DNA from: an uncultured bacterium
GTDB lineage: Bacteria; Zhuqueibacterota; QNDG01; DTFT01
Direction: 5' to 3'
NCBI GenBank assembly: GCA_963736115.1
Contig: CAVTNR010000019.1
Coordinates: 1 to 64,000, forward strand
Length of the DNA: 64,000 nucleotides
Each line of letters begins with the position of its first letter. Within the stretch, counting starts at the first letter, position 1. Below are positions 6,549 to 18,564 of the stretch, one piece after another. Made by a program: the position numbers and the translations under genes. A model generated the notes under the pieces. The model searched no databases. It was not told the origin of the DNA and was given only the letters and a program-made list of their open reading frames with translations.

Positions 6549-7770
6549 AGCGCAAAAGCTAAAGATGGTTTATGAGGTTTCCATGTGGGAGTTCGGGCGT
6601 TGGTTCAAAGTCAAGGAACAAATCGTCACGCTGTTGATCGGCGCATGCGCCAGTTTGTTCATTTTCGGCGGGAAGGGTCTCCTGGAAAAATTTTCTGAAA
6701 GCGGGGTCACTCTTGTCGTCCTGAACGGCAACACCCTGCCGCTCGCGCTGAGCGGTGAGAGCCCCATCCATCTTGTCCATAAAAACAGCGCGGAGATTGA
6801 AGCTCAAAAACTGCTGATGACAGAGAAGAAAATTGACGGAATACTCACCCTGATCGACATCGACCATGCGGACCTGCTGGTCAACAGGGAAGGCCCCTGG
6901 CTCGGGGAGCTGAAGGAAGCCCTCAACTCGGCCCGGAAGCGGGTTAAAATGGAACAGTCCGGTATCTCGCCGGAACAGCTCGCCACTGTGTTCGAACCCG
7001 TGTCTCTGAACATCGTGTATGCCGAAGCCGCTCCAGATAAAAGAAGTCGGGTCGACACGATAACGGCCGGAATATTCATCGGTTTGACGCTGCTGGGGAT
7101 TTTTACGGGTCTATCGTATCAATTCGTGGCCATCACCGGCGAAAAACAGCTTCGAATCACGGAGGTGGTCGTCTCCGCCATCAGCCCCCAGACATGGATA
7201 GACGGAAAGATCATCGGAATATCCCTGCTATCACTCGCTTTATTGGTCACTTATACTGCCGGAACGATGGTGTTTGTCTTGATTTCGTCTCTTTTCGGAA
7301 GCGGCTGGTCCTTCCCGATCGTTTTAACCAGTCCTTTCCTCGTAATGGTCCTGTTCCTCCTTTCCATTGGCGGGTTCCTTTTCTGGAACACCTTCTTTTC
7401 AGCGATTGCCGCAACCATCCACGACCCAAATACATCCGCCAGAAACTCGCTGATCATGGTTCCCGTCATTCCCATCGGTATCGCGTTCTACGCACTGAAA
7501 GATCCGGATTCATGGATCATGAAAATACTGTCCCTGTTTCCGCTCACATCCGCTCCGGTTCTTTCGGCAAGGCTGGTTTTAACCGAAGTGCCCGTCATCG
7601 AGGTGTGCGCTTCTCTGCTTCTATTGATCGTCTCCATCTGGTATCTGAGGAAACTGGCGGGGATCGTTTTTGCCACCTCCATCCTCATATACGGTAAAGA
7701 ACCTTCCTGGAAGGAAATTTCCAGATGGATCAGGGAATCCGGGAAGGAGAAAAAGAGCCTGACGTTCTGA
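6535..7770 (+). CDS. ABC-2 transporter permease (NatB/YhaP-like)
   Basis: One N-terminal TM helix, large loop, ITGEKQLRITEVVVSAISP...GKIIG, further TM helices; overlaps the ATPase stop. Confidence 0.88.
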   Translation: MNQNKAQKLKMVYEVSMWEFGRWFKVKEQIVTLLIGACASLFIFGGKGLLEKFSESGVTLVVLNGNTLPLALSGESPIHLVHKNSAEIEAQKLLMTEKKIDGILTLIDIDHADLLVNREGPWLGELKEALNSARKRVKMEQSGISPEQLATVFEPVSLNIVYAEAAPDKRSRVDTITAGIFIGLTLLGIFTGLSYQFVAITGEKQLRITEVVVSAISPQTWIDGKIIGISLLSLALLVTYTAGTMVFVLISSLFGSGWSFPIVLTSPFLVMVLFLLSIGGFLFWNTFFSAIAATIHDPNTSARNSLIMVPVIPIGIAFYALKDPDSWIMKILSLFPLTSAPVLSARLVLTEVPVIEVCASLLLLIVSIWYLRKLAGIVFATSILIYGKEPSWKEISRWIRESGKEKKSLTF

Positions 7771-7773
7771 TCG

Positions 7774-7799
7774 TGAATCTGACAGCGAGCGCATTCCCC
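7774..7799. repeat. End of PATE-like element (family B)
   Basis: TGAATCTGACAGCGAGCGCATTCCCC matches ends at 30485, 32666 and ~47837. Confidence 0.65.
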
Positions 7800-7834
7800 C
7801 GCGCAGAGGAACTCAGCCCCGGCAATTACGGAAC

Positions 7835-8008
7835 TTGATCGCGCCAGGGCTCTGCCCTGGCGCGTGAAAGCGCGGGGGTTCTGCCCCCGCAATTAGGGAG
7901 GGGATAAGGAGGGCAGAGTCCCGCTGCGCGGGACCAAGCGATAAGATTTATTTGATATTGAAGGCCCTCCCGGAGGCGCGTCCCGGGGCAGAGCCCCGGG
8001 ACGATCAA
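7835..8008. repeat. 174-bp MITE/REPIN-like element with inverted TTGATC-palindrome ends (family C)
   Basis: TTGATCGCGCCAGGGCTCTGCCCTGGCGCG ... CGCGTCCCGGGGCAGAGCCCCGGGACGATCAA. Confidence 0.65.
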
Positions 8009-8118
8009 AGCCGAGGGGCCGGGTTCAGGTAGAAGTGAAGCAAATTCATGTCCTTCAATCGTTTAAGCTGATATCGCGCGGAGAAGAATTGAAAAGCCCG
8101 CATCCGATAAAAAAATCA

Positions 8119-8147
8119 TTGACTTTCCTCTCAAAGTTGATTAAATT
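8119..8147 (+). promoter_or_regulatory. Sigma70-like promoter for tRNA-Asp
   Basis: TTGACT-17 nt-TAAATT just upstream of the tRNA. Confidence 0.6.
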
Positions 8148-8160
8148 TTCGTTCTGGTTC

Positions 8161-8238
<78 letters not shown>

Positions 8239-8291
8239 TTTTTTAAAGCGGATACGCCCAAAGGGCGTGACGGAAAATTTCAACATCAAAT

Positions 8292-8400
8292 AAAGACAGG
8301 CAATTGTGAGGCGGGAAGGTCAAAAGGGAATGCACGTATTCCTTGAGGGTCAAAACTCGTTTTGACCAGGCCCTGTCTTTTTAAAAGACAGGGCTTTTTT
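8292..8400 (+). promoter_or_regulatory. Candidate attenuator/riboswitch-like leader with intrinsic terminator
   Basis: Terminator GCCCTGTCTTT..AAAGACAGGGC plus T6 (8370-8400); upstream AAAGACAGG (8292-8300) can pair with the 5' strand of the terminator. Confidence 0.55.
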
Positions 8401-8435
8401 GTGTGAATAATTATCGCTTCGGGTGAATTTTCAAG

Positions 8436-9875
8436 ATGAATTATTCAGCCATTCTGCTCGCAGTCATTTTCGTGCCCACTTTGGGGTCGCTGTTTCTGCC
8501 GCTCCTTGGCAAGGCATCGGAAAAACTGAGAAACGCGGCCTCTTTGATATTTGTGGCCGTTGCGTTCGTCGGATCCTGCCTTCTCTGGCCAGCGGCCCGG
8601 GAAGGGGTGACGGTATTCCGCGGCCTGCCCCTGGGATTCCATTTCTCCCTCGGCGCGGACGGCCTGGCCGTGTTCATGGCCCTTGTTTCGTCCCTGATCA
8701 GCAGTCTCATCGTCCTATACTCCTTCCGCTACATCTCGCATTACGACAACCGCAACGAATACTATTTCATGGTGACCCTGTTCCTGGGGTCCATGATGGG
8801 GCTCATCTTCTCCCGCAATCTGATCCTTCTATATATATTCTGGGAAATCACGGCCATCGCCTCCTGGCGGCTGATCGGATTCTTCCGCGAGCCGCTCTAT
8901 GTGCTCAGGGCGGACAAGTCCTTCCTGGTCACGGGTTTCGGCGCCCTGCTCATGCTGCTGGGCTTTATAATGCTCGGAACCGAGGCCGGTTCCTTCGAGC
9001 TGTCAGACCTCTCGGCCTTTTACGCGACCTCGGCCGTGCCCCATGCCGCGGTTCTGCTCATTCTGGCCGGCATCCTGTCCAAGTCCGCGACTCTGCCTTT
9101 CCACACCTGGCTGCCGGACGCGGGTGTCGCGCCTTCGCCGGTCACCGCCCTTCTGCACGCCGCGGTCCTCGTCAAGATCGGCGTGTACGTGTACGCCCGG
9201 CTTTTCGTGTCCACCCTGCCGGCCGACGTCTTCACCATGGAGCTGGTCGGCTGGATCGCGGCCGCATCGGCCCTGGTATCCGCGGGCGCGGCCCTGGTCG
9301 ACACGGATCTCAAGCGTATTATCGCATTTTCGACCATCAGCCAGATCGGGTTCATCTTTCTGGGCTTTGCCGCGGGCAACGAAATCGGGCTCGCGGGCGG
9401 CCTGCTCTACATTCTGACCCACGGCCTGGCCAAGGCCGGGCTCTTCCTCGGCGCGGGCATCGTGGAGCAGAACACACACACCAAGGACGTGACGAAACTC
9501 GGCGGCCTGTATAAAACCATGCCGGTCACGGCCGTATCGTTTCTGCTCTGCAGTCTCTCGGTCATGGGCATTCCGCCCTTCGGCGGATTCTTCGGTAAAT
9601 ACATGGTGATCGCGGCCCCGATTCAGGCGGGCCGGTGGCCTCTCGCCCTGACTTTTATCGCCGGGGCCTTTCTCACGATCATGTACCTGTTCCGGGTGTT
9701 CCGTCTGGTGTTCCTCGGCGAATTGTCGCATCCGGAGGCGAAAGAGGGATCGAAAAGCATGGTGGCAGTGATCGCCGTGCTGGCCGGGCTCTCGCTCATC
9801 GCCGGCGTCTGGATCTCGGCCCCGTCCGGAATGGTCCAGTCCATCGCATCCTCCATCTTCACTCAGGTGAAATGA
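8436..9875 (+). CDS. Hydrogenase membrane subunit, MrpA/NuoL-like antiporter module 1
   Basis: FWEIT, KSATLPFHTWLPDA..PSPVTALLHAAVLVKIG, HGLAKAGLFL, GIPPFGGFFGK. Confidence 0.9.
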   Translation: MNYSAILLAVIFVPTLGSLFLPLLGKASEKLRNAASLIFVAVAFVGSCLLWPAAREGVTVFRGLPLGFHFSLGADGLAVFMALVSSLISSLIVLYSFRYISHYDNRNEYYFMVTLFLGSMMGLIFSRNLILLYIFWEITAIASWRLIGFFREPLYVLRADKSFLVTGFGALLMLLGFIMLGTEAGSFELSDLSAFYATSAVPHAAVLLILAGILSKSATLPFHTWLPDAGVAPSPVTALLHAAVLVKIGVYVYARLFVSTLPADVFTMELVGWIAAASALVSAGAALVDTDLKRIIAFSTISQIGFIFLGFAAGNEIGLAGGLLYILTHGLAKAGLFLGAGIVEQNTHTKDVTKLGGLYKTMPVTAVSFLLCSLSVMGIPPFGGFFGKYMVIAAPIQAGRWPLALTFIAGAFLTIMYLFRVFRLVFLGELSHPEAKEGSKSMVAVIAVLAGLSLIAGVWISAPSGMVQSIASSIFTQVK

Positions 9876-9882
9876 CGCAGCC

Positions 9883-11715
9883 ATGATCCCGTCGACACTG
9901 CTGATTCCCGTTTTCCTGCCGCTGGCCGCGGGCGTTCTCATTTTCCTTCTGGCGAAAATGTGGAAGGGATCGGGCGCGGTCCTGTCCCTGGCCGCCACAG
10001 CCGGCATGCTGGCCGTTTCCGCGTTTCTCTTCGGGAAGGAAGGGACGGCGACCCTGCCCTGGGCCGGTTTCGGCCTCGATTTCGTCGTGCGGCTCATGCC
10101 GTTCAACGGATTCATCCTGCTCGCGGTGTCCTTCTTCGCCTTCTGCACGGTTCTGTACGCGGCTTCGTATCTCAAGGGTACTCCGATCGCGCCGCATTTC
10201 TTCGGATTCCTGATGCTGTCCGCGGGCTTCGCGGCAGGCGCGGTGATCGCGGACCATCTCGTGCTCCTGCTGTTCTTCTGGGAGGGCCTGCTCGGGTCCA
10301 TGTATGCGCTCATCGCCATGGGCCGCAAGGACGCCTGGCGCACGGCGGTCAAGATGTTCATCATCGTGGGCGTGTCCGACCTCTGCATGATGGCCGGCAT
10401 CGCCATGACCGGTCACGCGGCCGGGTCGCTCGTAATGTCCTCCATCCACCTGCCGGTGGAGGGGCTCAATATCCTGGCCTTCCTCCTGCTCGCCATCGGC
10501 GGCCTGGCCAAGGCCGGGTCCATGCCCTTCCATTCCTGGATTCCTTTCGCGGCCGAGGACGCGCCCCTGCCGTTCATGGCCTTTTTCCCGGGCGCGCTCG
10601 AGAAACTCGTGGGCATCTATTTTCTGGCCCGGCTGTCCCTCGACCTGTACAGTCTGCAGGCCGGGTCATGGGTGTCGCTCCTGCTCATGATCGTGGGCGC
10701 GGCGACCATTCTGCTCGCCGTGCTCATGGCCCTGATTCAGAAGGACTACAAGAAACTGCTATCGTACCATGCCATCAGCCAGGTCGGGTACATGGTGCTC
10801 GGCATCGGCACGGCCTCGCCGGTCGGCGTGATCGGCGGCCTCTTCCACATGCTGAACAACGCGCTGTACAAGAGCGGACTCTTCCTCACCGCGGGTATGG
10901 TCGAGCATCAGGCCGGCACCACGGACCTGCGCCGGCTCGGCGGTCTCGGAAAGCGCATGCCCCTGACAGCGGCGGCTTTCGTCGTGTTCGGGCTCTCGAT
11001 TTCCGGCGTGCCGCCCTTCAACGGATTCTTTTCCAAGGAACTGATATACGACGCCGCGCTCGAGCGGCACTGGGTTTTCTACCTCGCCGCGGTACTCGGC
11101 TCCTTCTTCACGGCCGCGTCCTTCCTGAAACTCGGACACGCGGCTTTCTTCGGGCCCGCGAAGCCCGAGCACAAGGACGTCCGGGAAGCGCCGTGGCCCA
11201 TGCTCCTGCCCACGCTCGTCATTGCCGGCCTGTGCATTCTGTTCGGGGTATACAACACCCTGCCCGTGCACCGCTTCCTCGTGCCCGCTGTGGGGGAGGA
11301 GGCCCTGCACGGGCATCACGTCTCGGGCATGCCCGCGAACTGGATGCTGGTGGCCGGGACCCTGATCGTGCTCGCGGCCGCGTTGCTGAACCACTGGTAC
11401 GGCGTTCGCCGTTCCGGCGCGGGCCTGGGCGCGGCCGATCACATTCACCACGCGCCCGGACTGTCCGGTGTTTACGACCGGGCCGAGCGTCAGGTTTTCG
11501 ATCCCTACAACCACTGGACGGCCTTGATCGGCGTCCTTTCAAGGATACTGAACGCCGCGGACCGGGGCGTGAACGCCCTGTACGACGTCGTGTCCGTGTC
11601 CGCGGTGAAAACGCTCTCGGCCGGAATGCGCAGACTGCAGTCCGGCGCCTACACGGCCTACATCCTCTGGTCCCTGGCGGGTCTCGCGGCCGCGGCCTGG
11701 TGGATGTTCCGCTGA
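9883..11715 (+). CDS. Hydrogenase membrane subunit, MrpA/NuoL-like antiporter module 2
   Basis: KAGSMPFHSWIP, KKLLSYHAISQVGY, GVPPFNGFFSK; extended C-terminus. Confidence 0.9.
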   Translation: MIPSTLLIPVFLPLAAGVLIFLLAKMWKGSGAVLSLAATAGMLAVSAFLFGKEGTATLPWAGFGLDFVVRLMPFNGFILLAVSFFAFCTVLYAASYLKGTPIAPHFFGFLMLSAGFAAGAVIADHLVLLLFFWEGLLGSMYALIAMGRKDAWRTAVKMFIIVGVSDLCMMAGIAMTGHAAGSLVMSSIHLPVEGLNILAFLLLAIGGLAKAGSMPFHSWIPFAAEDAPLPFMAFFPGALEKLVGIYFLARLSLDLYSLQAGSWVSLLLMIVGAATILLAVLMALIQKDYKKLLSYHAISQVGYMVLGIGTASPVGVIGGLFHMLNNALYKSGLFLTAGMVEHQAGTTDLRRLGGLGKRMPLTAAAFVVFGLSISGVPPFNGFFSKELIYDAALERHWVFYLAAVLGSFFTAASFLKLGHAAFFGPAKPEHKDVREAPWPMLLPTLVIAGLCILFGVYNTLPVHRFLVPAVGEEALHGHHVSGMPANWMLVAGTLIVLAAALLNHWYGVRRSGAGLGAADHIHHAPGLSGVYDRAERQVFDPYNHWTALIGVLSRILNAADRGVNALYDVVSVSAVKTLSAGMRRLQSGAYTAYILWSLAGLAAAAWWMFR

Positions 11716-11752
11716 ACCGGGCGGAAACCCGTTCTTCAGAAAAACAGGAGTC

Positions 11753-13192
11753 GTGTCCTTGCAGTCCCTTCTGATACTGGTGCCCCTGATCTGCCTGATG
11801 CTCTTCAACCTGCCGTGGAAGCGGGGCGTCGGTCAGGCCGTGTCCTTCGGCGCGGGTCTGGCGTTTCTGGCCGCGCAGGCCGCTTCCGCCCTGTGGGCGC
11901 TGCTGTCCGGCGGAGAGCCTTTCGGAGACCCGCTGGCCGGGTTCCTCGTGTTCCGGACCTCGGCCGACGGCCTGACCTGGGTGATGCTGCTCGCGGTGGC
12001 CGTGGTCGCGGCATCCAGCCTGGCCGTGAGCCGCGCCGCTTTCAACGATGAAAAGGACCGGTTTTACTTCGCCAATCTGCTGTTTGTGTCCGTGATCGGC
12101 ATGAACGGCGCCGCGCTTTCCGGCGACCTGTTCACTCTGTACGTTTTCTTCGAGGCCGCCTCGGTGGCGTCCTTCATTCTCATCGCCTTCCGCCGCGGCA
12201 TGGCCGGGCTGGAGGGATCGTTCAAGTACCTCGTGATGTCCACGGTGGCCACGGTGCTCATGCTCACCGGCATCGGATTCTTCATGCTCGCCGGCGCCGG
12301 CACCTCCTTCGCCGAAGTCCGCGCCGCCTGCGTCCAGTCGGCGCATCCGGAATTCGCCCGCATCGGCGGCCTGGTCTTCATGGCCGGCCTGTTCATCAAA
12401 GGCGGCGTGGTGCCCTTTCACGGATGGCTGCCCGACGCGTACGGCACGGCGCCCGGACCCGTGTCCGTCCTGCTGGCCGGCATCGTGACCAAGGCCACGG
12501 GCATTTACGGTCTCATCCGGCTCACCGTTTCCGTCCTCCCGATGACGCCGGAGATGCAGACCCTGCTGATGACGCTGGGGATCGTCTCCATATACGCCGG
12601 CGCCCTCGCCGCCATCGGCCAGTCGGACTACAAGCGCATGCTCGCGTATTCGAGCATCAGCCAGGTCGGTTACATTGTCCTGGCCCTCGGCTGCCGCACG
12701 CCGCTGGCCCTGGCAGGCGCGGTGTTCCACCTGCTGAACCACGCGGTGTTCAAGAGCCTTCTCTTCTCGAACGCGGCGGCCGTGGAATCGCGGCTCGGAC
12801 ACACTGACATGAACCGCATGGGCGGCCTGCAGACGCAGATGCCCTGGTCCAGCCTGTCGGCCGTGATCGGCCTGTTGTCCACGGCCGGAATCCCGCCGCT
12901 GGGCGGGTTCTGGAGCAAAGTCATCATCCTGCTGGCGCTCTGGCAGGCGGGGTTCCACGCCGCGGCCGTGCTGGCCCTGGCGGCCAGCCTGCTGACCCTG
13001 GCGTATTTCCTCTCCATGCAGAGACGCGTGTTCTTCGCCAAGGGTCCGGAGACCGGGACGGCCGTGACCGAAGCCCGGGCCGCGTACCTGGCGCCCCAGC
13101 TGGCTTTGGCCGGACTGACCGCGGCCATCGGCATCGGCTTTCCGTTCGTGTACCGGTTTTTACTGACGCCCATTCAACAACTGCTGTGGTGA
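11753..13192 (+). CDS. Hydrogenase membrane subunit, MrpD/NuoN-like antiporter module 3
   Basis: DLFTLYVFFE, PFHGWLPDAY, KRMLAYSSISQVGY, GIPPLGGFWSK; GTG start after AGGAG. Confidence 0.9.
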   Translation: MSLQSLLILVPLICLMLFNLPWKRGVGQAVSFGAGLAFLAAQAASALWALLSGGEPFGDPLAGFLVFRTSADGLTWVMLLAVAVVAASSLAVSRAAFNDEKDRFYFANLLFVSVIGMNGAALSGDLFTLYVFFEAASVASFILIAFRRGMAGLEGSFKYLVMSTVATVLMLTGIGFFMLAGAGTSFAEVRAACVQSAHPEFARIGGLVFMAGLFIKGGVVPFHGWLPDAYGTAPGPVSVLLAGIVTKATGIYGLIRLTVSVLPMTPEMQTLLMTLGIVSIYAGALAAIGQSDYKRMLAYSSISQVGYIVLALGCRTPLALAGAVFHLLNHAVFKSLLFSNAAAVESRLGHTDMNRMGGLQTQMPWSSLSAVIGLLSTAGIPPLGGFWSKVIILLALWQAGFHAAAVLALAASLLTLAYFLSMQRRVFFAKGPETGTAVTEARAAYLAPQLALAGLTAAIGIGFPFVYRFLLTPIQQLLW

Positions 13193-13196
13193 TCGA

Positions 13197-13679
13197 ATGA
13201 CCGTGGATCTGATCCTGCTCGGACTTCTCGTGCTGGCGGCCCTGTGGGCCGTCCTGAGCGTCCGCCTCATGATGTCGGTCATCGGGCTCGCGGCCGTCAG
13301 CGTGGCCGTGTCGCTCCTGATGTTCCGGCTGGACGCGCCGTACGCCGCGATGTTCGAGCTGTCCGTGTGCGCCGGCCTCATCTCCGTGATCTTCTTCGTG
13401 GCCATCAGCTTCACCAAGCGGCTGACGCCGGAGGATATCCGGACGCACCGCAAGGAAAGACTGCGCAAGACGGTCTGGCTGCCGTTTCTCCTGGCCGGGC
13501 TCGCGATTCTCCTGGTCGCCCGGCTGAAAAGCCCGGGTCTCGAGCCCGCGACGGTTCCGGGCGGTGACGTGCGGACCCTGCTGTGGGGCGGCCGCCACCT
13601 CGACCTGATCGGACAGATCGTGGTGCTGCTGGCCGGGGCCTTCGGCGTCGTGGTGCTATTCAAGGAAAAAAACAAATGA
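13197..13679 (+). CDS. NuoJ-like membrane subunit
   Basis: Several TM helices, AAMFELSVCAGL; operon position. Confidence 0.8.
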   Translation: MTVDLILLGLLVLAALWAVLSVRLMMSVIGLAAVSVAVSLLMFRLDAPYAAMFELSVCAGLISVIFFVAISFTKRLTPEDIRTHRKERLRKTVWLPFLLAGLAILLVARLKSPGLEPATVPGGDVRTLLWGGRHLDLIGQIVVLLAGAFGVVVLFKEKNK

Positions 13680-13996
13680 ACTTTGCCGGAATCCCGCTCT
13701 TCGACGCCTTCGGCATCGCCGGGGCGCTTCTCCTGGCGGCCGGACTCTACTATCTGCTGGTCACCTCGAACCTGATCCGGGCGATGATCGCCCTGGAACT
13801 CATGATCAAGGGCGTCACGCTCTTCCTGATCCTCGCGGGCCGGGTCACGGGCCGCACGGACCTGGCGCAGGCCCTGGTCATCACCCTCATCGTGATCGAG
13901 GTCGTCATCATGGTCGTCGCGGGCGGGCTGGTGCTCGGCGTCTTCCGGAACACCCGTTCCGTGGGCTCGCGGCAGATCCGGAACCTGAAAGGCTGA
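13676..13996 (+). CDS. NuoK/MrpC-like membrane subunit
   Basis: 3 TM helices, NLIRAMIALELMIKG, IVIEV; ATGA overlap. Confidence 0.82.
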   Translation: MNFAGIPLFDAFGIAGALLLAAGLYYLLVTSNLIRAMIALELMIKGVTLFLILAGRVTGRTDLAQALVITLIVIEVVIMVVAGGLVLGVFRNTRSVGSRQIRNLKG

Positions 13997-14003
13997 AGCG
14001 CCC

Positions 14004-14342
14004 ATGAACTCCAGCATCTGGCTTTCGCCCCCGGTCGCGTTCGGCATCCTGTTCGCCGTCACGGCCCTGCTCTCCCTGCTTGGCGGCCGGCTCGCGTTCA
14101 AGCGGAAGGGCCCGAAACCGTCCGGTTCGGGCAAGGGATACGCCTGCGGGGAGGATTTCAAGGGCCACGGCGCCCAGCCGGATTACAGTTCGTTCTTCCC
14201 GTTCGCGTTTTTCTTCACGATTCTTCACGTGGTGGCCCTGGCCGTCGCCTCGGTTCCGGCCGTGAACGCCGGCATCTTCGCCATTGCCGCGGTGTACTGC
14301 GCGGGCGCGGTGATCGGCCTGTCCGTTCTGCAGAGGAGGTGA
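14004..14342 (+). CDS. NuoA-like membrane subunit
   Basis: YACGE loop between TM helices. Confidence 0.75.
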   Translation: MNSSIWLSPPVAFGILFAVTALLSLLGGRLAFKRKGPKPSGSGKGYACGEDFKGHGAQPDYSSFFPFAFFFTILHVVALAVASVPAVNAGIFAIAAVYCAGAVIGLSVLQRR

Positions 14343-14348
14343 GGTTCC

Positions 14349-14804
14349 GTGGGAGCGATTCAGCGGATCGTCCAGTGGTCGCGCATCAAATCGCCCTGGG
14401 TGATCCATTTCAACTCCGGCGCGTGCAACGGGTGCGACATCGAAATCGTCGCGTCCCTGACGCCGCGGTATGACTTGGAGCGGTTCGGCGTCCTGCTCAA
14501 GGGCACCCCGCGGCACGCGGACGTCCTGCTGGCCTCGGGACCCGTGACGCGGCAGATCGAGGACCGCCTGCTGCGCATCTACGAGCAGATGGCCGAGCCG
14601 AAGTTCGTGGTGGCCGTCGGCACCTGCGCGTGCACGGGCGGCGTGTTCCGCGGGCTCTACAACGTCAGGGGCGGCATCGACACGATTCTGCCGGTTTCAG
14701 CCTATATACCCGGGTGTTCCGTGACCCCGAACGCCATTATCGACGGCGTGGTCAAACTGCTGGCCACCCTGGAGAGCCCGCCGAAAAAGGCTGCGGCCGG
14801 CTGA
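14349..14804 (+). CDS. Group 4 [NiFe]-hydrogenase small subunit (EchC/MbhJ-like)
   Basis: GACNGCDIE (CxxC, not the complex I CC), PRHAD, GTCACTGG, YIPGC. Confidence 0.9.
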   Translation: MGAIQRIVQWSRIKSPWVIHFNSGACNGCDIEIVASLTPRYDLERFGVLLKGTPRHADVLLASGPVTRQIEDRLLRIYEQMAEPKFVVAVGTCACTGGVFRGLYNVRGGIDTILPVSAYIPGCSVTPNAIIDGVVKLLATLESPPKKAAAG

Positions 14805-14949
14805 ACGCCGGGACCGCGCGCCTGGGGCCGTCAACCGGGAGCGGGTCCGCCGGGAGCCGCGCGCCCCGACGTGTGATATCTAAAACGGAACTTTTCCGGC
14901 CGCGGTTCGTTTCCATCCGATGCGTTCAATTGAAGACTGGAAGTCACGC

Positions 14950-15441
14950 ATGACACAGGAAGAAAAATTCCGCAATGACCTGGCGGCGCGTTTCCCCGAA
15001 CTGGCGGACAAAATCATCCTCCAGAGGGTCCGCCGCATCTGGGTCGACGTGCCGGCCGGCCGGTTCCGCGAGGTCTTTGACTTCTGCACGGAATCGCTCG
15101 GCGTCACCATTCTGCTCATTCTGACCGGCCTGGACGAGGTTGAATCGGGTACGTTCGGCGTCCTCTACCACATGGCCCGTCCCGACGGCGTGGTGATCAA
15201 CCTCCGCATCCACCTGCCGAAGGACAAGCCGGTCATGCGGAGCGTCACGGACCGGTTCCCGTCCGCCGAGGCGTACGAGCGCGAACTGGTCGATCTGCTC
15301 GGCATCGTCGTGACCGGACTGCCGGAAGGCTCCCGCTACCCGCTTCCGGACAGCTGGCCGGAAGGGCAGTACCCGCTCCGCAAGGACTGGAAGCCCGCGG
15401 ACGCCGCGCCGGCTCCGGAGGAAGGAAAGAGCCATGCCTGA
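14950..15441 (+). CDS. NuoC/EchD-like subunit
   Basis: AEAYERELVDLLGI, YPLRKDW. Confidence 0.85.
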   Translation: MTQEEKFRNDLAARFPELADKIILQRVRRIWVDVPAGRFREVFDFCTESLGVTILLILTGLDEVESGTFGVLYHMARPDGVVINLRIHLPKDKPVMRSVTDRFPSAEAYERELVDLLGIVVTGLPEGSRYPLPDSWPEGQYPLRKDWKPADAAPAPEEGKSHA

Positions 15442-16674
15442 TTTCGGAAGCGTGCAGATCCCGGTCGGGCCCCAGCATCCGGCCCTGAAGGAGCCCGAAA
15501 GCTTTCTCATCACCCTGCGCGGCGAGAAGATCACGGCCGCGAGCGTGCGCATGGGATACAACCACCGCGGCGTCGAAAAGGGCGCGGAAGACCGCACTTA
15601 CATCCAGGACATCTACCTTGTCGAGCGCATCTGCGGCATCTGCTCGCATTCGCACGCCACCGCCTTCGTCCAGGCCGTGGAGGAAATCGCCGGGCTCCAG
15701 GTGCCCCGCCGCGCCCAGTACATCCGCATGCTGGTCGGCGAACTGGAGCGCATGCACAGCCACCTGCTCTGGCTCGGCGTGGCCGGGCACGAGATCGGTT
15801 TCGACACCCTGCTCATGTACTCCTGGCGCGACCGCGAGGTGGTCATGGACCTGCTGGCCGCGATCAGCGGCAACCGGGTCAATTACGGCATGAACACCAT
15901 CGGCGGCGTGCGGCGCGACGTGGACGCGGCACTGGCCGGAACGATCCTCAAGGGAGTGGACCGGCTGGAGGAACAGACGAAGTACTACATCCAGGTCTGC
16001 TCCGAGGAGACCACGCTGATCAAGCGTCTCTCCGGGGTCGGCGTGGCTGACGTACGAGGACGCGCTCCGGCTCCTGGTGGTCGGCCCGACCGGCCGCGCG
16101 TCGGGCGTGGCCCGCGACATCCGGAAGGACGACCCGTACGCTCGCGTACGACGAGCTGGATTTCAAGGTCGTGACCAGCGACCACTGCGACGTCTACGGC
16201 CGGACCCTGGTGCGCGTCGGCGAGCTGATGGAAAGCTACTCGCTGATCCGGCAGATCCTGAAGAAACTGCCTGACGGCCCGATCACGGTCAAGGCGCCGC
16301 GCAAGATCCCGGCCGGCGAGGCCCTCAGCCGGTACGAGGCGCCCCGCGGCGAGGACGTGCATTACGTGAAGGCGAACGGCACAGAGAAACCCGAACGCGT
16401 GAAGGTGCGCGCCCCCACGCTGGCCAACCTCCAGGCCGTTTCGCACATGCTCGAGGACAACAACCTGGCCGACATGCCCATCGTCATCGCGGCCATCGAC
16501 CCCTGCTTCTCCTGCACCGACCGGGCCGTGGAACTCAAACGGGCGGATTCGGGCCTGCGGGACCGCATGGACTGGGGCCGCCTCCGGAAGCACGGCATCG
16601 ATTTCTACCGGAGCCGGGGCGTTGATTTCACGGAACTGAACCGGTCACTCACCCGGAGGATGAAGAATTCCTAA
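15434..16674 (+). CDS. Group 4 [NiFe]-hydrogenase large subunit, split by two +1 frameshifts
   Basis: GPQHPALKEP, L1 motif ERICGIC, L2 motif DPCFSCTDR plus C-terminal extension; frame is restored by removing one base near 16046 and one near 16140. Confidence 0.88.
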
Positions 16675-17616
16675 ATGGGCACCGCACTGATTCAGATACT
16701 CGTATTCCCGGGTCTGCTGTTCCTGGCGGTCGCGGGCCTGGCCGGAGAGTTTATCGACCGGAGGCTGTACGCCCGGTTCCAGAACCGGATGGGACCGCCG
16801 TGGTTCCAGCCCCTGGCCGATTTCATCAAGCTCCTGTCCAAGGAGGAGCTCGTACCGGACGGCGTGGACCGCGGCCTATTCCGGCTCATGCCGGTGTTCG
16901 CGCTGACCGCCGTGGTGACCGCTTTCTTCTATATTCCGCTCTGGAAACCGGCCGCGCTGGCCTCGTTCAGCGGGGACGCGATCGTCGTGCTGTACCTGCT
17001 GACCATTCCGACGTTCACCTATTTTCTCGGCGGGTACACGTCGAACTCCGTGTACGCCCTGCTCGGGTCGGCCCGCACGCTGACCCAGCTCTACGCGTAT
17101 GAGGTTCCGCTTTTCCTGGCCGTGCTCGGACCCTGCCTGCTCGCGGGCACGTGGTCTCTGTCGGAGTTGACGGTTTTCTTCCAGGCGCGTCCCTGGGCCC
17201 TGGCCGCGAACGCCGCCGGATTCGGCATTGCCCTGATCGCCCTGCTCGGCAAGCTGGAAAAGGTTCCTTTCGACATCCCGGAGGCCGAGACGGAAATCGT
17301 CGGCGGCGCTTTCACCGAGTACAGCGGCCGCTTTCTCGCGTGGTTCCGGCTCTCCTTCGACATTGAGATGATCACGGGCGCGTCCCTCCTGGCCGCGGTG
17401 TTCATGCCCTTCGGCCTGGGGTTCGGGTTCGCGGCCGGATTCGGGCTGTACCTCGTTAAAATTCTGTTCCTCATCGCGCTGATCGCCCTGATCCGCTCGC
17501 TCGTGGCGAGATTGCGCATCGACCAGATGATCGGCTTCTGCTGGAAGGTGCTCGCGCCGATCGCCTTCCTGCAGGTGATCGTGAACCTGGTGCTGAAAGG
17601 GATTTTCTTTTCATGA
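16675..17616 (+). CDS. NuoH/EchB-like membrane subunit
   Basis: RFQNRMGPPWFQPLADFIKLLSKE, PFDIPEAETEI..G.FTEYSG. Confidence 0.9.
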   Translation: MGTALIQILVFPGLLFLAVAGLAGEFIDRRLYARFQNRMGPPWFQPLADFIKLLSKEELVPDGVDRGLFRLMPVFALTAVVTAFFYIPLWKPAALASFSGDAIVVLYLLTIPTFTYFLGGYTSNSVYALLGSARTLTQLYAYEVPLFLAVLGPCLLAGTWSLSELTVFFQARPWALAANAAGFGIALIALLGKLEKVPFDIPEAETEIVGGAFTEYSGRFLAWFRLSFDIEMITGASLLAAVFMPFGLGFGFAAGFGLYLVKILFLIALIALIRSLVARLRIDQMIGFCWKVLAPIAFLQVIVNLVLKGIFFS

Positions 17617-18053
17617 TCAGACCCGGTGCCATGTTCAGTACGCTGATCGCCTCCGTTTTCCGGAAGCCGGCCACCCATCGGTACCCGGCCGCCCCGTTCG
17701 AGATGCCGGCGCATTTCCGCGGCCAGATCCGTTTCATCGCCAAAAACTGCATCGGGTGCCGCATGTGCATGCGCGACTGCCCCGCGGACGCGGTTGAAAT
17801 CCGCAAGGTGGGGGAGAAGCGTTTCGAGGCGCGTTTCGACCTCGGCCGCTGCATTTACTGCGCCCAGTGCGTCGACTCCTGCCCCAAGAGCGCTCTTGAA
17901 GCGACTGACCGCTACGAGCTCGCGGGATACAAACAGGACCAGCTCAAGGCGTTTTTCGAGGCCGCGCCCGCGCCGCCGGCGGCCCCGGCCACTCCTCAGG
18001 CGGAAGAGACGCCTTCCACGGAACCCGCCCCTGCCCCAGACGCTGGAAAATAA
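17613..18053 (+). CDS. NuoI/EchF-like 2[4Fe-4S] subunit
   Basis: CIGCRMCMRDCP and CIYCAQCVDSCP. Confidence 0.9.
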   Translation: MIRPGAMFSTLIASVFRKPATHRYPAAPFEMPAHFRGQIRFIAKNCIGCRMCMRDCPADAVEIRKVGEKRFEARFDLGRCIYCAQCVDSCPKSALEATDRYELAGYKQDQLKAFFEAAPAPPAAPATPQAEETPSTEPAPAPDAGK

Positions 18054-18564
18054 GCTTCCCCCTTTTTTAAAGGACGTCCGGTCGCTTGCCATTCTGGGCG
18101 TGGGATCGGACCTGCGGGGCGACGATGCCGCGGGCCTGATTCTGTGCCGCAGGCTGGAGGCGCGTTTTGCGTCCCTTCCGGATCCGTCCCGGTTCCGCGC
18201 CTTCATGGGCGAAACCGCGCCTGAAAACCTCACCGGAGAAATCCGGCGGTTTGCGCCCTCCCACCTCATCATTGTCGATAGCGCTGATTTCGGACGCGAG
18301 CCCGGAACCATCGTTGCCGCGGATCCCGTCGAGATTACCGGCATTTCTTTCTCAACGCATCGCCTGCCTCTTTTCGTGCTCACGGATTACATCGAGCGGG
18401 AAATGCCGTGCCGGATTCTCATTATCGGCATGCAGCCGCTGACGCTCGGGCTGTTCCGCGAGGTTTCCGAATCCGTTGCATCCGCGCTTGACGCACTCTC
18501 CGAAACGCTGATCAAGGCCATCGAAATCCTGCCGGGGTTTTCGTCCGCGTCTTCCAATCCCTGA
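18043..18564 (+). CDS. hycI: Hydrogenase maturation protease (HycI-like); start uncertain
   Basis: LGVGSDLRGDDAAG, GETAPEN, IIVDSAD, FSTHRLP; no ATG/GTG/TTG at the expected start. Confidence 0.82.
   Translation: MENKLPPFLKDVRSLAILGVGSDLRGDDAAGLILCRRLEARFASLPDPSRFRAFMGETAPENLTGEIRRFAPSHLIIVDSADFGREPGTIVAADPVEITGISFSTHRLPLFVLTDYIEREMPCRILIIGMQPLTLGLFREVSESVASALDALSETLIKAIEILPGFSSASSNP

Follow-up and report, generated by a model that had tools for sequence, protein, structure and literature searches.

Introduction

The Na+-I (DUF1646) riboswitch of C. acetobutylicum kefB is described as an ON-type switch whose aptamer shares a strand with an intrinsic terminator, and c-di-AMP riboswitches are described as OFF switches (PMC9337991). 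Among the papers listed in a literature search, none was found that describes a riboswitch or attenuator upstream of a Mrp-type hydrogenase operon. To our knowledge, little is known about the regulation of Mrp-linked group-4 hydrogenases in uncultured anaerobes. For transcripts that begin with a tRNA, the 3' external transcribed spacer (3'ETS) of an E. coli tRNA reportedly acts as a small RNA (sRNA) sponge, a precedent for the main rival explanation considered below.

Here, we analyze a leader of roughly 110 bases, downstream of a tRNA-Asp gene and ahead of a membrane-bound hydrogenase operon, in a 64,000-nucleotide stretch of bacterial DNA (contig CAVTNR010000019.1, hereafter the window). We assign a probability of about one half to the reading that positions 8292-8400 are a genus-specific, cis-acting leader RNA that serves as a transcription attenuator of the hydrogenase/Mrp operon. 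If real, this would be a case of RNA-level control of an energy-converting hydrogenase, with the unusual wiring of a housekeeping tRNA promoter driving a 10-kb respiratory operon via a gated terminator.

Organization of the leader

The features of the leader and its surroundings are as follows, with G001 and G003 denoting the two other genomes in which the whole region was found.

8119-8147, + strand: sigma-70-like promoter of tRNA-Asp (TTGACT, 17 nt spacer, TAAATT), from a promoter scan
8161-8238, + strand: tRNA-Asp, anticodon GTC at 8196-8198, encoded CCA; Rfam score 64.9 bits
8239-8244, + strand: T6 run directly 3' of tRNA-Asp; T7 in G001 and G003
8245-8291, + strand: spacer, unconstrained, with many substitutions and indels among the three species
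8292-8301, + strand: alpha, the 5' strand of helix P1 (putative antiterminator), a copy of the terminator 3' strand
8302-8324, + strand: purine-rich junction J1/2, containing beta1 (GGTCAAAA, 8318-8325), a duplicate of the hairpin B 5' arm
8325-8344, + strand: hairpin A (AAGGGAAT/ATTCCTT), 8325-8332 paired with 8337-8344, 8 pairs, loop CACG
8348-8367, + strand: hairpin B, 8 pairs, loop CUCG
8368-8396, + strand: intrinsic terminator stem, 13 pairs (6 G-C) and a loop of 3, then T6 at 8395-8400, from a terminator scan
8368-8381, + strand: terminator 5' arm, doubling as the P1 3' strand (alpha', CCTGTCTTT, 8372-8380), shared by folds predicted to be mutually exclusive
8383-8400, + strand: terminator 3' arm, with alpha2 at 8384-8392, then T6 at 8395-8400
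8401-8435, + strand: conserved post-terminator stretch, 35 nt to the ATG (8436) of the first operon gene
8436-18564, + strand: group-4 [NiFe] hydrogenase operon with a Mrp-type antiporter module, 14 genes, about 10 kb

The preliminary description of this locus had placed a strong terminator 35 nt before the first ATG and, upstream, a copy of its 3' strand able to sequester its 5' arm. Both claims were borne out. The terminator combines a G+C-rich hairpin (stem dG approximately -17 kcal/mol) with a U-run, as expected of an intrinsic terminator, and its T6 run ends at 8400, leaving 8401-8435 before the ATG. In the repeat search, the upstream AAAGACAGG (8292-8300) matches 8384-8392 exactly and shows 100% complementarity to CCTGTCTTT at 8372-8380. 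The purine-rich strand (8302-8317) and the hairpin formed by AAGGGAAT and ATTCCTT are also present as described. A second repeat, GGTCAAAA, was located by the same search at both 8318-8325 and 8348-8355 and can be lengthened to 11 nt with 91% identity; each copy is complementary to TTTTGACC at 8360-8367.

The frequency of such complements by chance was assessed with dinucleotide-preserving shuffles of 8239-8347. Of 20,000 shuffles, 121 had 9 nt or more complementary to the terminator 5' arm and 307 had 8 nt or more complementary to the hairpin B 3' arm; none had both. Thus, taken together, these sequence features exceed chance.

The operon downstream encodes three Proton_antipo_M subunits, MbhD/NuoJ-like, NuoK-like, NuoB-, NuoC-, NuoD-, NuoH- and NuoI-like subunits, and a HycI-like protease. 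The large subunit retains both Ni-binding cysteine motifs, and the operon neither contains nor adjoins a regulator gene.

At 15434-16674 of the window, the [NiFe] large-subunit gene of the source assembly (G000) is split into two overlapping frames, and the Arg/Pro-rich tail of the first of these looks out of frame. In G001 and G003 the large subunit is a single open frame of 452 aa each. Either an assembly error or recent pseudogenization could explain the frameshift in the source assembly.

Several repeats were seen around the cassette. Before the tRNA promoter, short palindromic segments rich in GC (window 7780-7803 and 7918-7942) recur at approximately 35 other places in the genome, with 100% identity over 20-25 nt, and resemble dispersed REP-like repeats. 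In both G001 and G003 the contig breaks off immediately before the tRNA promoter, possibly on account of these repeats. Two inverted repeats flank the tRNA-Asp cassette and leader: 7947-7962 with 8279-8294 (16 nt, 94%), the right arm of which lies in the non-conserved spacer, and 7936-7944 with 8411-8419 (9 nt, 100%). The leader block itself is single-copy in the source assembly, and a repeat or mobile element was rejected as its identity. Outside the window, at approximately 221239-222890 of another contig of the source assembly (C8), a seven-tRNA array has spacers made of repeated GTTCATAG-like units.

Constraint on the leader within the genus

A DNA search of 61 relatives recovered the whole region only in G001 (93%) and G003 (91%), both of the same genus; for the other 58 relatives, the match was limited to the tRNA part. 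Over 8292-8435, G001 differs from the source at 3 of 144 nt (8319, 8380, 8382) and G003 at 5 of 144 (8382, 8383, 8403, 8404, 8432). At four-fold degenerate sites of the adjacent gene, by comparison, 60 of 288 and 59 of 287 positions differ (approximately 21%), so that the binomial probability of so few differences in the block is approximately 2e-11 for G001 and 2e-9 for G003. Judged by these counts, the block 8292-8435 is under strong purifying selection within the genus. Its conserved part starts at the first base of P1 (8292, the antiterminator strand), directly after the scrambled spacer at 8245-8291. Three of the eight substituted positions lie in the terminator loop, and 8380, 8382 and 8383 are the main variable sites of the block. 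Hairpin A, the purine-rich segment and the hairpin loops are invariant in the three species, and the sole substitution in the sensor domain is G8319T in G001.

Contigs of further strains, recovered from sequencing runs X1, X2 and X4, show approximately 92-94% identity across the stretch. Among the differences listed for these runs, those within 8291-8435 fall at 8291, 8301, 8383 and 8403/8404, and the C>T change at 8301 keeps a G-U wobble with G8370. DNA runs X1, X2, X4 and X5 yielded no new divergent variants. Among the 24 sequencing runs listed, the 6 RNA runs contained 0.00-0.07 of the sampled words.

No covariation was seen among the three sequences: of 26 pairs, 25 are constant and the other shows a mismatch. 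With three near-identical sequences, the covariation test is powerless. The predicted structure is supported by the thermodynamics, the conservation boundary and the pattern of variable sites, and draws no support from compensatory change.

Predicted folding of the growing transcript

Folding of the growing transcript was modelled from 8291 onward. Hairpin A is predicted to form first, hairpin B next, then P1, and the terminator last. For transcripts ending between 8381 and 8389, the minimum free energy (MFE) structure has P1 (8292-8301 with 8370-8380) enclosing hairpins A and B, at -28.9 kcal/mol. P1 and the two tetraloop hairpins would form a three-way junction with a 23-nt purine-rich junction strand. 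By 8396, the terminator is predicted to displace P1 (-37.9 kcal/mol, and -38.3 at full length), the terminator fold being approximately 9 kcal/mol more stable than the P1 fold. When alpha2 is blocked the energy is -28.9 kcal/mol, and when alpha is blocked it is -37.2 kcal/mol. These energies suggest that termination is the default outcome and that read-through needs a stabilized P1, an ON-type layout. The same layout had been proposed in the preliminary description, and it agrees with the model in that P1 is predicted to form before the more stable terminator. The upstream strand 8292-8300 should be able to pair with the terminator arm in a fold that excludes the terminator, which is the arrangement expected of an attenuator. 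The MFE z-score is -3.5 for 8239-8440 and only -1.9 for the 93-nt domain 8291-8383. Folds with enforced pairs gave inconsistent energies and were set aside.

A transient alternative helix is also predicted, in which beta1:beta' pairing is extended by GGG (8312-8314) with CCC (8371-8373). The two GGTCAAAA copies had been described as competing for TTTTGACC. Their complementarity stands, but G8319T in G001 weakens the beta1:beta' helix, which is therefore not treated as essential. In the MFE fold, 8308-8314 can pair with 8414-8420. Farther downstream, a small UUCG-loop hairpin at 8414-8426 is possible in the model and would cover a Shine-Dalgarno-like GGUGA site at 8422-8426. The loops of hairpins A and B appear to fit the pattern of stable tetraloops; if correct, this assignment favours an RNA-level over a DNA-level role.

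These predictions can be arranged into the following mechanism for an attenuator. Transcription would enter from the tRNA-Asp promoter, no other promoter having been seen, and hairpins A and B would form while the RNA emerges. Alpha (8292-8301) would then pair with alpha' (8370-8380), closing the three-way junction with P1 and tying up the terminator 5' arm. By default, once alpha2 (8384-8392) has been made, the 13-bp terminator would oust P1 and the transcript would end at the U-run, so that the same terminator would also serve tRNA-Asp. A putative effector (a small ligand, an ion, a protein or another RNA) would stabilize the junction and P1 and thereby permit read-through into the operon. 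We infer that RNA is made from the tRNA promoter, that its termination is regulated and that an effector exists.

Putative transcription from the tRNA-Asp promoter

A simple scan of 7700-8700 found a single promoter-like site on the + strand upstream of the operon, namely the promoter at 8119-8147, which G001 and G003 share. The preliminary description had raised the case of a plain tRNA terminator followed by a separate downstream promoter. Between the tRNA-Asp promoter and the ATG, however, the + strand scan found no sigma-70-like site with at least 9 of 12 matches (8147-8436). Together with the non-conserved spacer, this result points to read-through from the tRNA-Asp promoter. The gene is the sole tRNA-Asp(GTC) among the 42 tRNAs found in the assembly (87% complete), so its promoter should be constitutively active.

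The leader terminator lies 157 nt downstream of tRNA-Asp, whereas a terminator-like site follows eleven other tRNA genes of the genome at 20-45 nt. This greater distance fits a function of the intervening block's own. For tRNA-Gly(CCC) and tRNA-Ser(GGA) of the same genome, only a T-run (T7-T9) follows, without a further terminator. Since such T-runs stand alone after other tRNAs, the conserved T6-T7 run after tRNA-Asp may itself terminate transcription or mark processing, and it may stop much of the transcription from the tRNA promoter.

A further pairing was seen between the leader and the tRNA. GACAGGC at 8295-8301, in the antiterminator strand, is complementary to GCCTGTC at 8192-8198 in the tRNA-Asp anticodon arm; the former includes the Asp codon GAC and the latter the anticodon, and the two are paired in the MFE fold of the whole primary transcript. 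This 7-nt complementarity could reflect chance, mis-folding or an interplay with the tRNA.

Search for related RNA families

In a comparison with Rfam 15 (E<=10, 7700-8700), tRNA was the only family above its gathering score. This agrees with the preliminary description, in which the leader was not recognized as a member of the Na+, Li+, NiCo, Moco or FMN class. The best sub-threshold matches in the block were L10_leader (22.3 bits, gathering 44) and PyrR (21.7 bits, gathering 54), followed by EF3314_EF3315 (19.7 bits, gathering 100) and, on the minus strand over the terminator, RefA9 (23.5 bits, gathering 49). The Na+, Li+, NiCo, Moco, FMN, T-box and c-di-AMP classes gave no match in the block at E<=10, and for the T-box this holds across 7700-8700. 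The c-di-AMP model RF00379 had no match in the whole source assembly (87% complete). A search for an ANTAR regulator gave no match, but the control genomes likewise gave none, so that this negative carries no weight.

To look for wider homologues, we built a covariance model of the three-way junction (R1) from the three near-identical sequences, which limits its reach. Among 151 genomes of the phylum, strong matches were obtained only in the source genome, G001 and G003; three further matches, with E values of 0.26-0.48, were treated as noise. No R1 match was found in 37 loci of homologous operons (0 of 31 and 0 of 6). The proposed motif is strongly conserved in the genus, and it was not found beyond the genus in the 151 phylum genomes or in the 37 operon loci. 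A riboswitch class is recognized by an aptamer that recurs across diverse organisms with covarying helices; what was found here are three near-identical sequences, a set without power in this respect. As only near-identical copies are available, comparative validation of the motif is not yet possible.

Leaders of orthologous operons

Leaders were compared at ten orthologous loci from other lineages, in which gene 1 has 50-67% best-segment identity. Six came from metagenomes, out of 80 loci (at least 50% identity, with the N-terminus and upstream DNA present), and four from genomes, these being the ones listed at 61-67% best-segment identity out of 80 loci. A further metagenomic locus (L059, 62%) was excluded because its contig begins at residue 94. 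Gene 2 follows gene 1 in L055, L056, L057, L058, L142 and L144. None of the ten leaders resembles the block, and no tRNA lies upstream of the operon in any of the 6 loci checked. The preliminary description had suggested that the absence of a conserved or covarying motif from homologous leaders, together with constitutive termination, would speak against a switch. Beyond the genus, this is in part what was observed: the orthologous leaders are not homologous to the block, and covariation is zero.

A leader terminator, defined as a terminator-like hairpin with its U-run that follows a consensus promoter and precedes the start codon, is present at 4 of the 10 loci and absent, by the same definition, from the other 6. 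L055, L056 and L142 share the same terminator, 24-27 nt before the start, while that of L057 is different and lies 133 nt before it. Positions 2290-2451 of L055 are a c-di-AMP (ydaO) riboswitch (RF00379, 67.4 bits, gathering 38, E = 7e-14), followed by the terminator 24 nt before the orthologous Mrp/hydrogenase operon. The other three loci have terminators with a leader that is too short for an aptamer or that carries no recognized aptamer; in L056, just approximately 25 nt separate promoter and terminator, and the L142 leader has no Rfam match. Terminators at 4 of 10 loci, one of them with a c-di-AMP riboswitch, give RNA-level attenuation a precedent in this type of operon. Sequence comparison suggests that RNA-level attenuation at this position recurs in the operon family while the sensor part is not conserved. 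The L055 riboswitch suggests that in that relative the enzyme complex is tied to K+/osmotic signalling, and its presence at the same place provides a testable lead. The source genome encodes a DAC-domain cyclase.

At several other loci the upstream region is cut off or differently arranged. The contigs of G004, G030 and G026 stop at or inside the gene 1 orthologue, and in G027 and G024 another antiporter gene precedes it. The first 14 positions of the G004 contig (L036:1-14, a family-level orthologue) resemble a sequencing adapter; as the contig seems to open with an adapter, the upstream leader is unreadable for that genus.

A short box directly before the start codon was also noted. Here, 8423-8435 reads GAATTTTCAAG followed by ATG, and in L057 GAATATTCAAG is followed by GTG, nearly identical boxes despite orthologues that are 60% identical in protein. 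The L057 start is probably this GTG, two codons upstream of the tblastn start.

Alternative explanations

The main rival is that the block is a tRNA-trailer sRNA, i.e. the 3'ETS of tRNA-Asp together with its terminator, acting in trans as an sRNA or sponge. It would be released by tRNA 3' processing and stabilized by the terminator hairpin and U-tail, and the operon would be transcribed either from a weak promoter of its own that overlaps the terminator 3' arm or by unregulated leak-through. We regard this explanation as a real but rather unlikely one. The block does follow the sole tRNA-Asp(GTC) gene directly and has a strong terminator at its end, its single-stranded purine-rich segment and hairpin loops are invariant, and it is a genus-restricted orphan, like many sRNAs. 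However, conservation runs unbroken through the 35 nt up to the ATG, and the first base of the block falls precisely on the strand in competition with the terminator, a feature that an RNA acting in trans would not need. No + strand promoter-like site (at least 9 of 12) follows the terminator, and the best match found by hand has 4 of 6 bases of a -35 element in the terminator 3' arm and 4 of 6 of a -10 element 18 nt downstream, which would leave a 5' UTR of approximately 15 nt. Orthologous operons, moreover, have leader terminators with no tRNA nearby. A purely DNA-level explanation, to which we give a lower probability still, holds that the terminator simply belongs to tRNA-Asp and that the palindromes at 8325-8344, 8348-8367 and within 8401-8435 are operator or promoter DNA for factors at an unrecognized hydrogenase promoter. 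Hairpins A and B are indeed near-perfect DNA palindromes whose loops are as invariant as their stems, the GGTCAAAA repeats are spaced 30 bp apart, and the pre-start box (GAATTTTCAAG) has a counterpart, GAATATTCAAG, in L057, whose orthologue is 60% identical. Yet the 144 contiguous bases, invariant apart from the few substitutions given above, far exceed typical operators, variation is concentrated in the terminator loop with both stems kept, and the conserved block has its 5' limit just where the strand able to pair with the terminator arm begins. The scan detected no promoter-like site, and neither the operon nor its flanks include a regulator gene. Comparison by hand with consensus sequences gave only weak partial resemblances to sigma-54-like, Rex-like and Fur-like boxes, which carry no weight here.

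Two further explanations involve the leader RNA itself. Translation of a leader peptide could control the terminator, since an 11-codon ORF (ATG 8330, TGA 8363-8365, MHVFLEGQNSF), unchanged across the three species, stops 3-5 nt short of the terminator 5' arm, so that a ribosome paused at its stop would cover that arm. This appears very improbable, as the purine-rich stretch ends approximately 1-2 nt before the ATG (a poor spacing), the ATG is buried in the hairpin A stem, and the ORF has no informative codon run and falls below the 20-aa threshold of the ORF listing; with zero substitutions among the three species, it also offers nothing from which a coding signature could be read. Least probable, at a level that we consider close to negligible, is that the leader has diverged from one of the known riboswitch or attenuator classes (c-di-AMP, Na+-I, Li+, NiCo, T-box or PyrR). 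The c-di-AMP riboswitch of the orthologous operon L055 and the DAC-domain cyclase of the source genome could be read in its favour, as could the complementarity of GACAGGC (8295-8301) to the tRNA-Asp anticodon arm (8192-8198). Against it, none of these classes matches the block at E<=10 except PyrR, at 21.7 bits versus a gathering score of 54, RF00379 is absent from the 87%-complete assembly, and the three predicted helices with the long J1/2 are unlike the c-di-AMP fold aligned in L055. A cis-acting attenuator remains our preferred reading, and within it the nature of the sensor can be addressed only tentatively. The predicted three-way junction at 8292-8381 might be the aptamer of a new, narrowly distributed riboswitch class, which we consider doubtful. 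A fuller version, also on the unlikely side, is that it senses an ion or osmotic cue (Na+, K+ or c-di-AMP-related), has replaced, in this genus, the c-di-AMP aptamer of the relative and gates read-through from a constitutive tRNA-Asp promoter into the hydrogenase/Mrp operon. The term riboswitch and the ligands suggested in the preliminary description (an ion, Ni or pH) are conjectural. Direct sensing of a ligand by the leader RNA is, taken by itself, a possibility of low probability.

Comparison with known systems

The attenuators of the PyrR and L10-leader types resemble the leader in that an upstream strand competes with the terminator, and they provide its best sub-threshold Rfam matches. 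They differ from it in score (21.7 versus 54 bits and 22.3 versus 44 bits), and no gene for a cognate regulator lies nearby. Like E. coli 3'ETS-leuZ, the leader belongs to the 3' trailer of a tRNA transcript, with the operon terminator as its end; unlike 3'ETS-leuZ, it has a 14-gene operon without a visible promoter 35 nt on and a built-in antiterminator.

The c-di-AMP leader of L055 has the same genomic role, since it too follows a promoter and precedes gene 1 in an operon of the same type. Between L055 and the window, identity is 63% for gene 1 and 55% for gene 2, and in both loci 24-41 nt separate the end of the terminator U-run from the start codon. The L055 leader differs in matching RF00379 at 67.4 bits, for which the window has no match, and in having its own TTGACT/TATAAT promoter and no tRNA. 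In addition, the predicted layout of the window is ON-type, whereas c-di-AMP riboswitches are described as OFF switches (PMC9337991).

A further comparison is with the Na+-I riboswitch of kefB. The leader differs from it in having no sequence or structure match to DUF1646 or any other Rfam model, in being a motif from one genus without covariation, and in apparently being fed by a tRNA promoter rather than its own. With the kefB leader (PMC9337991), the leader shares a sensor helix and terminator stem that are mutually exclusive, a six-U run after the terminator, read-through that is expected on stabilization of the sensor fold, and downstream genes for ion translocation.
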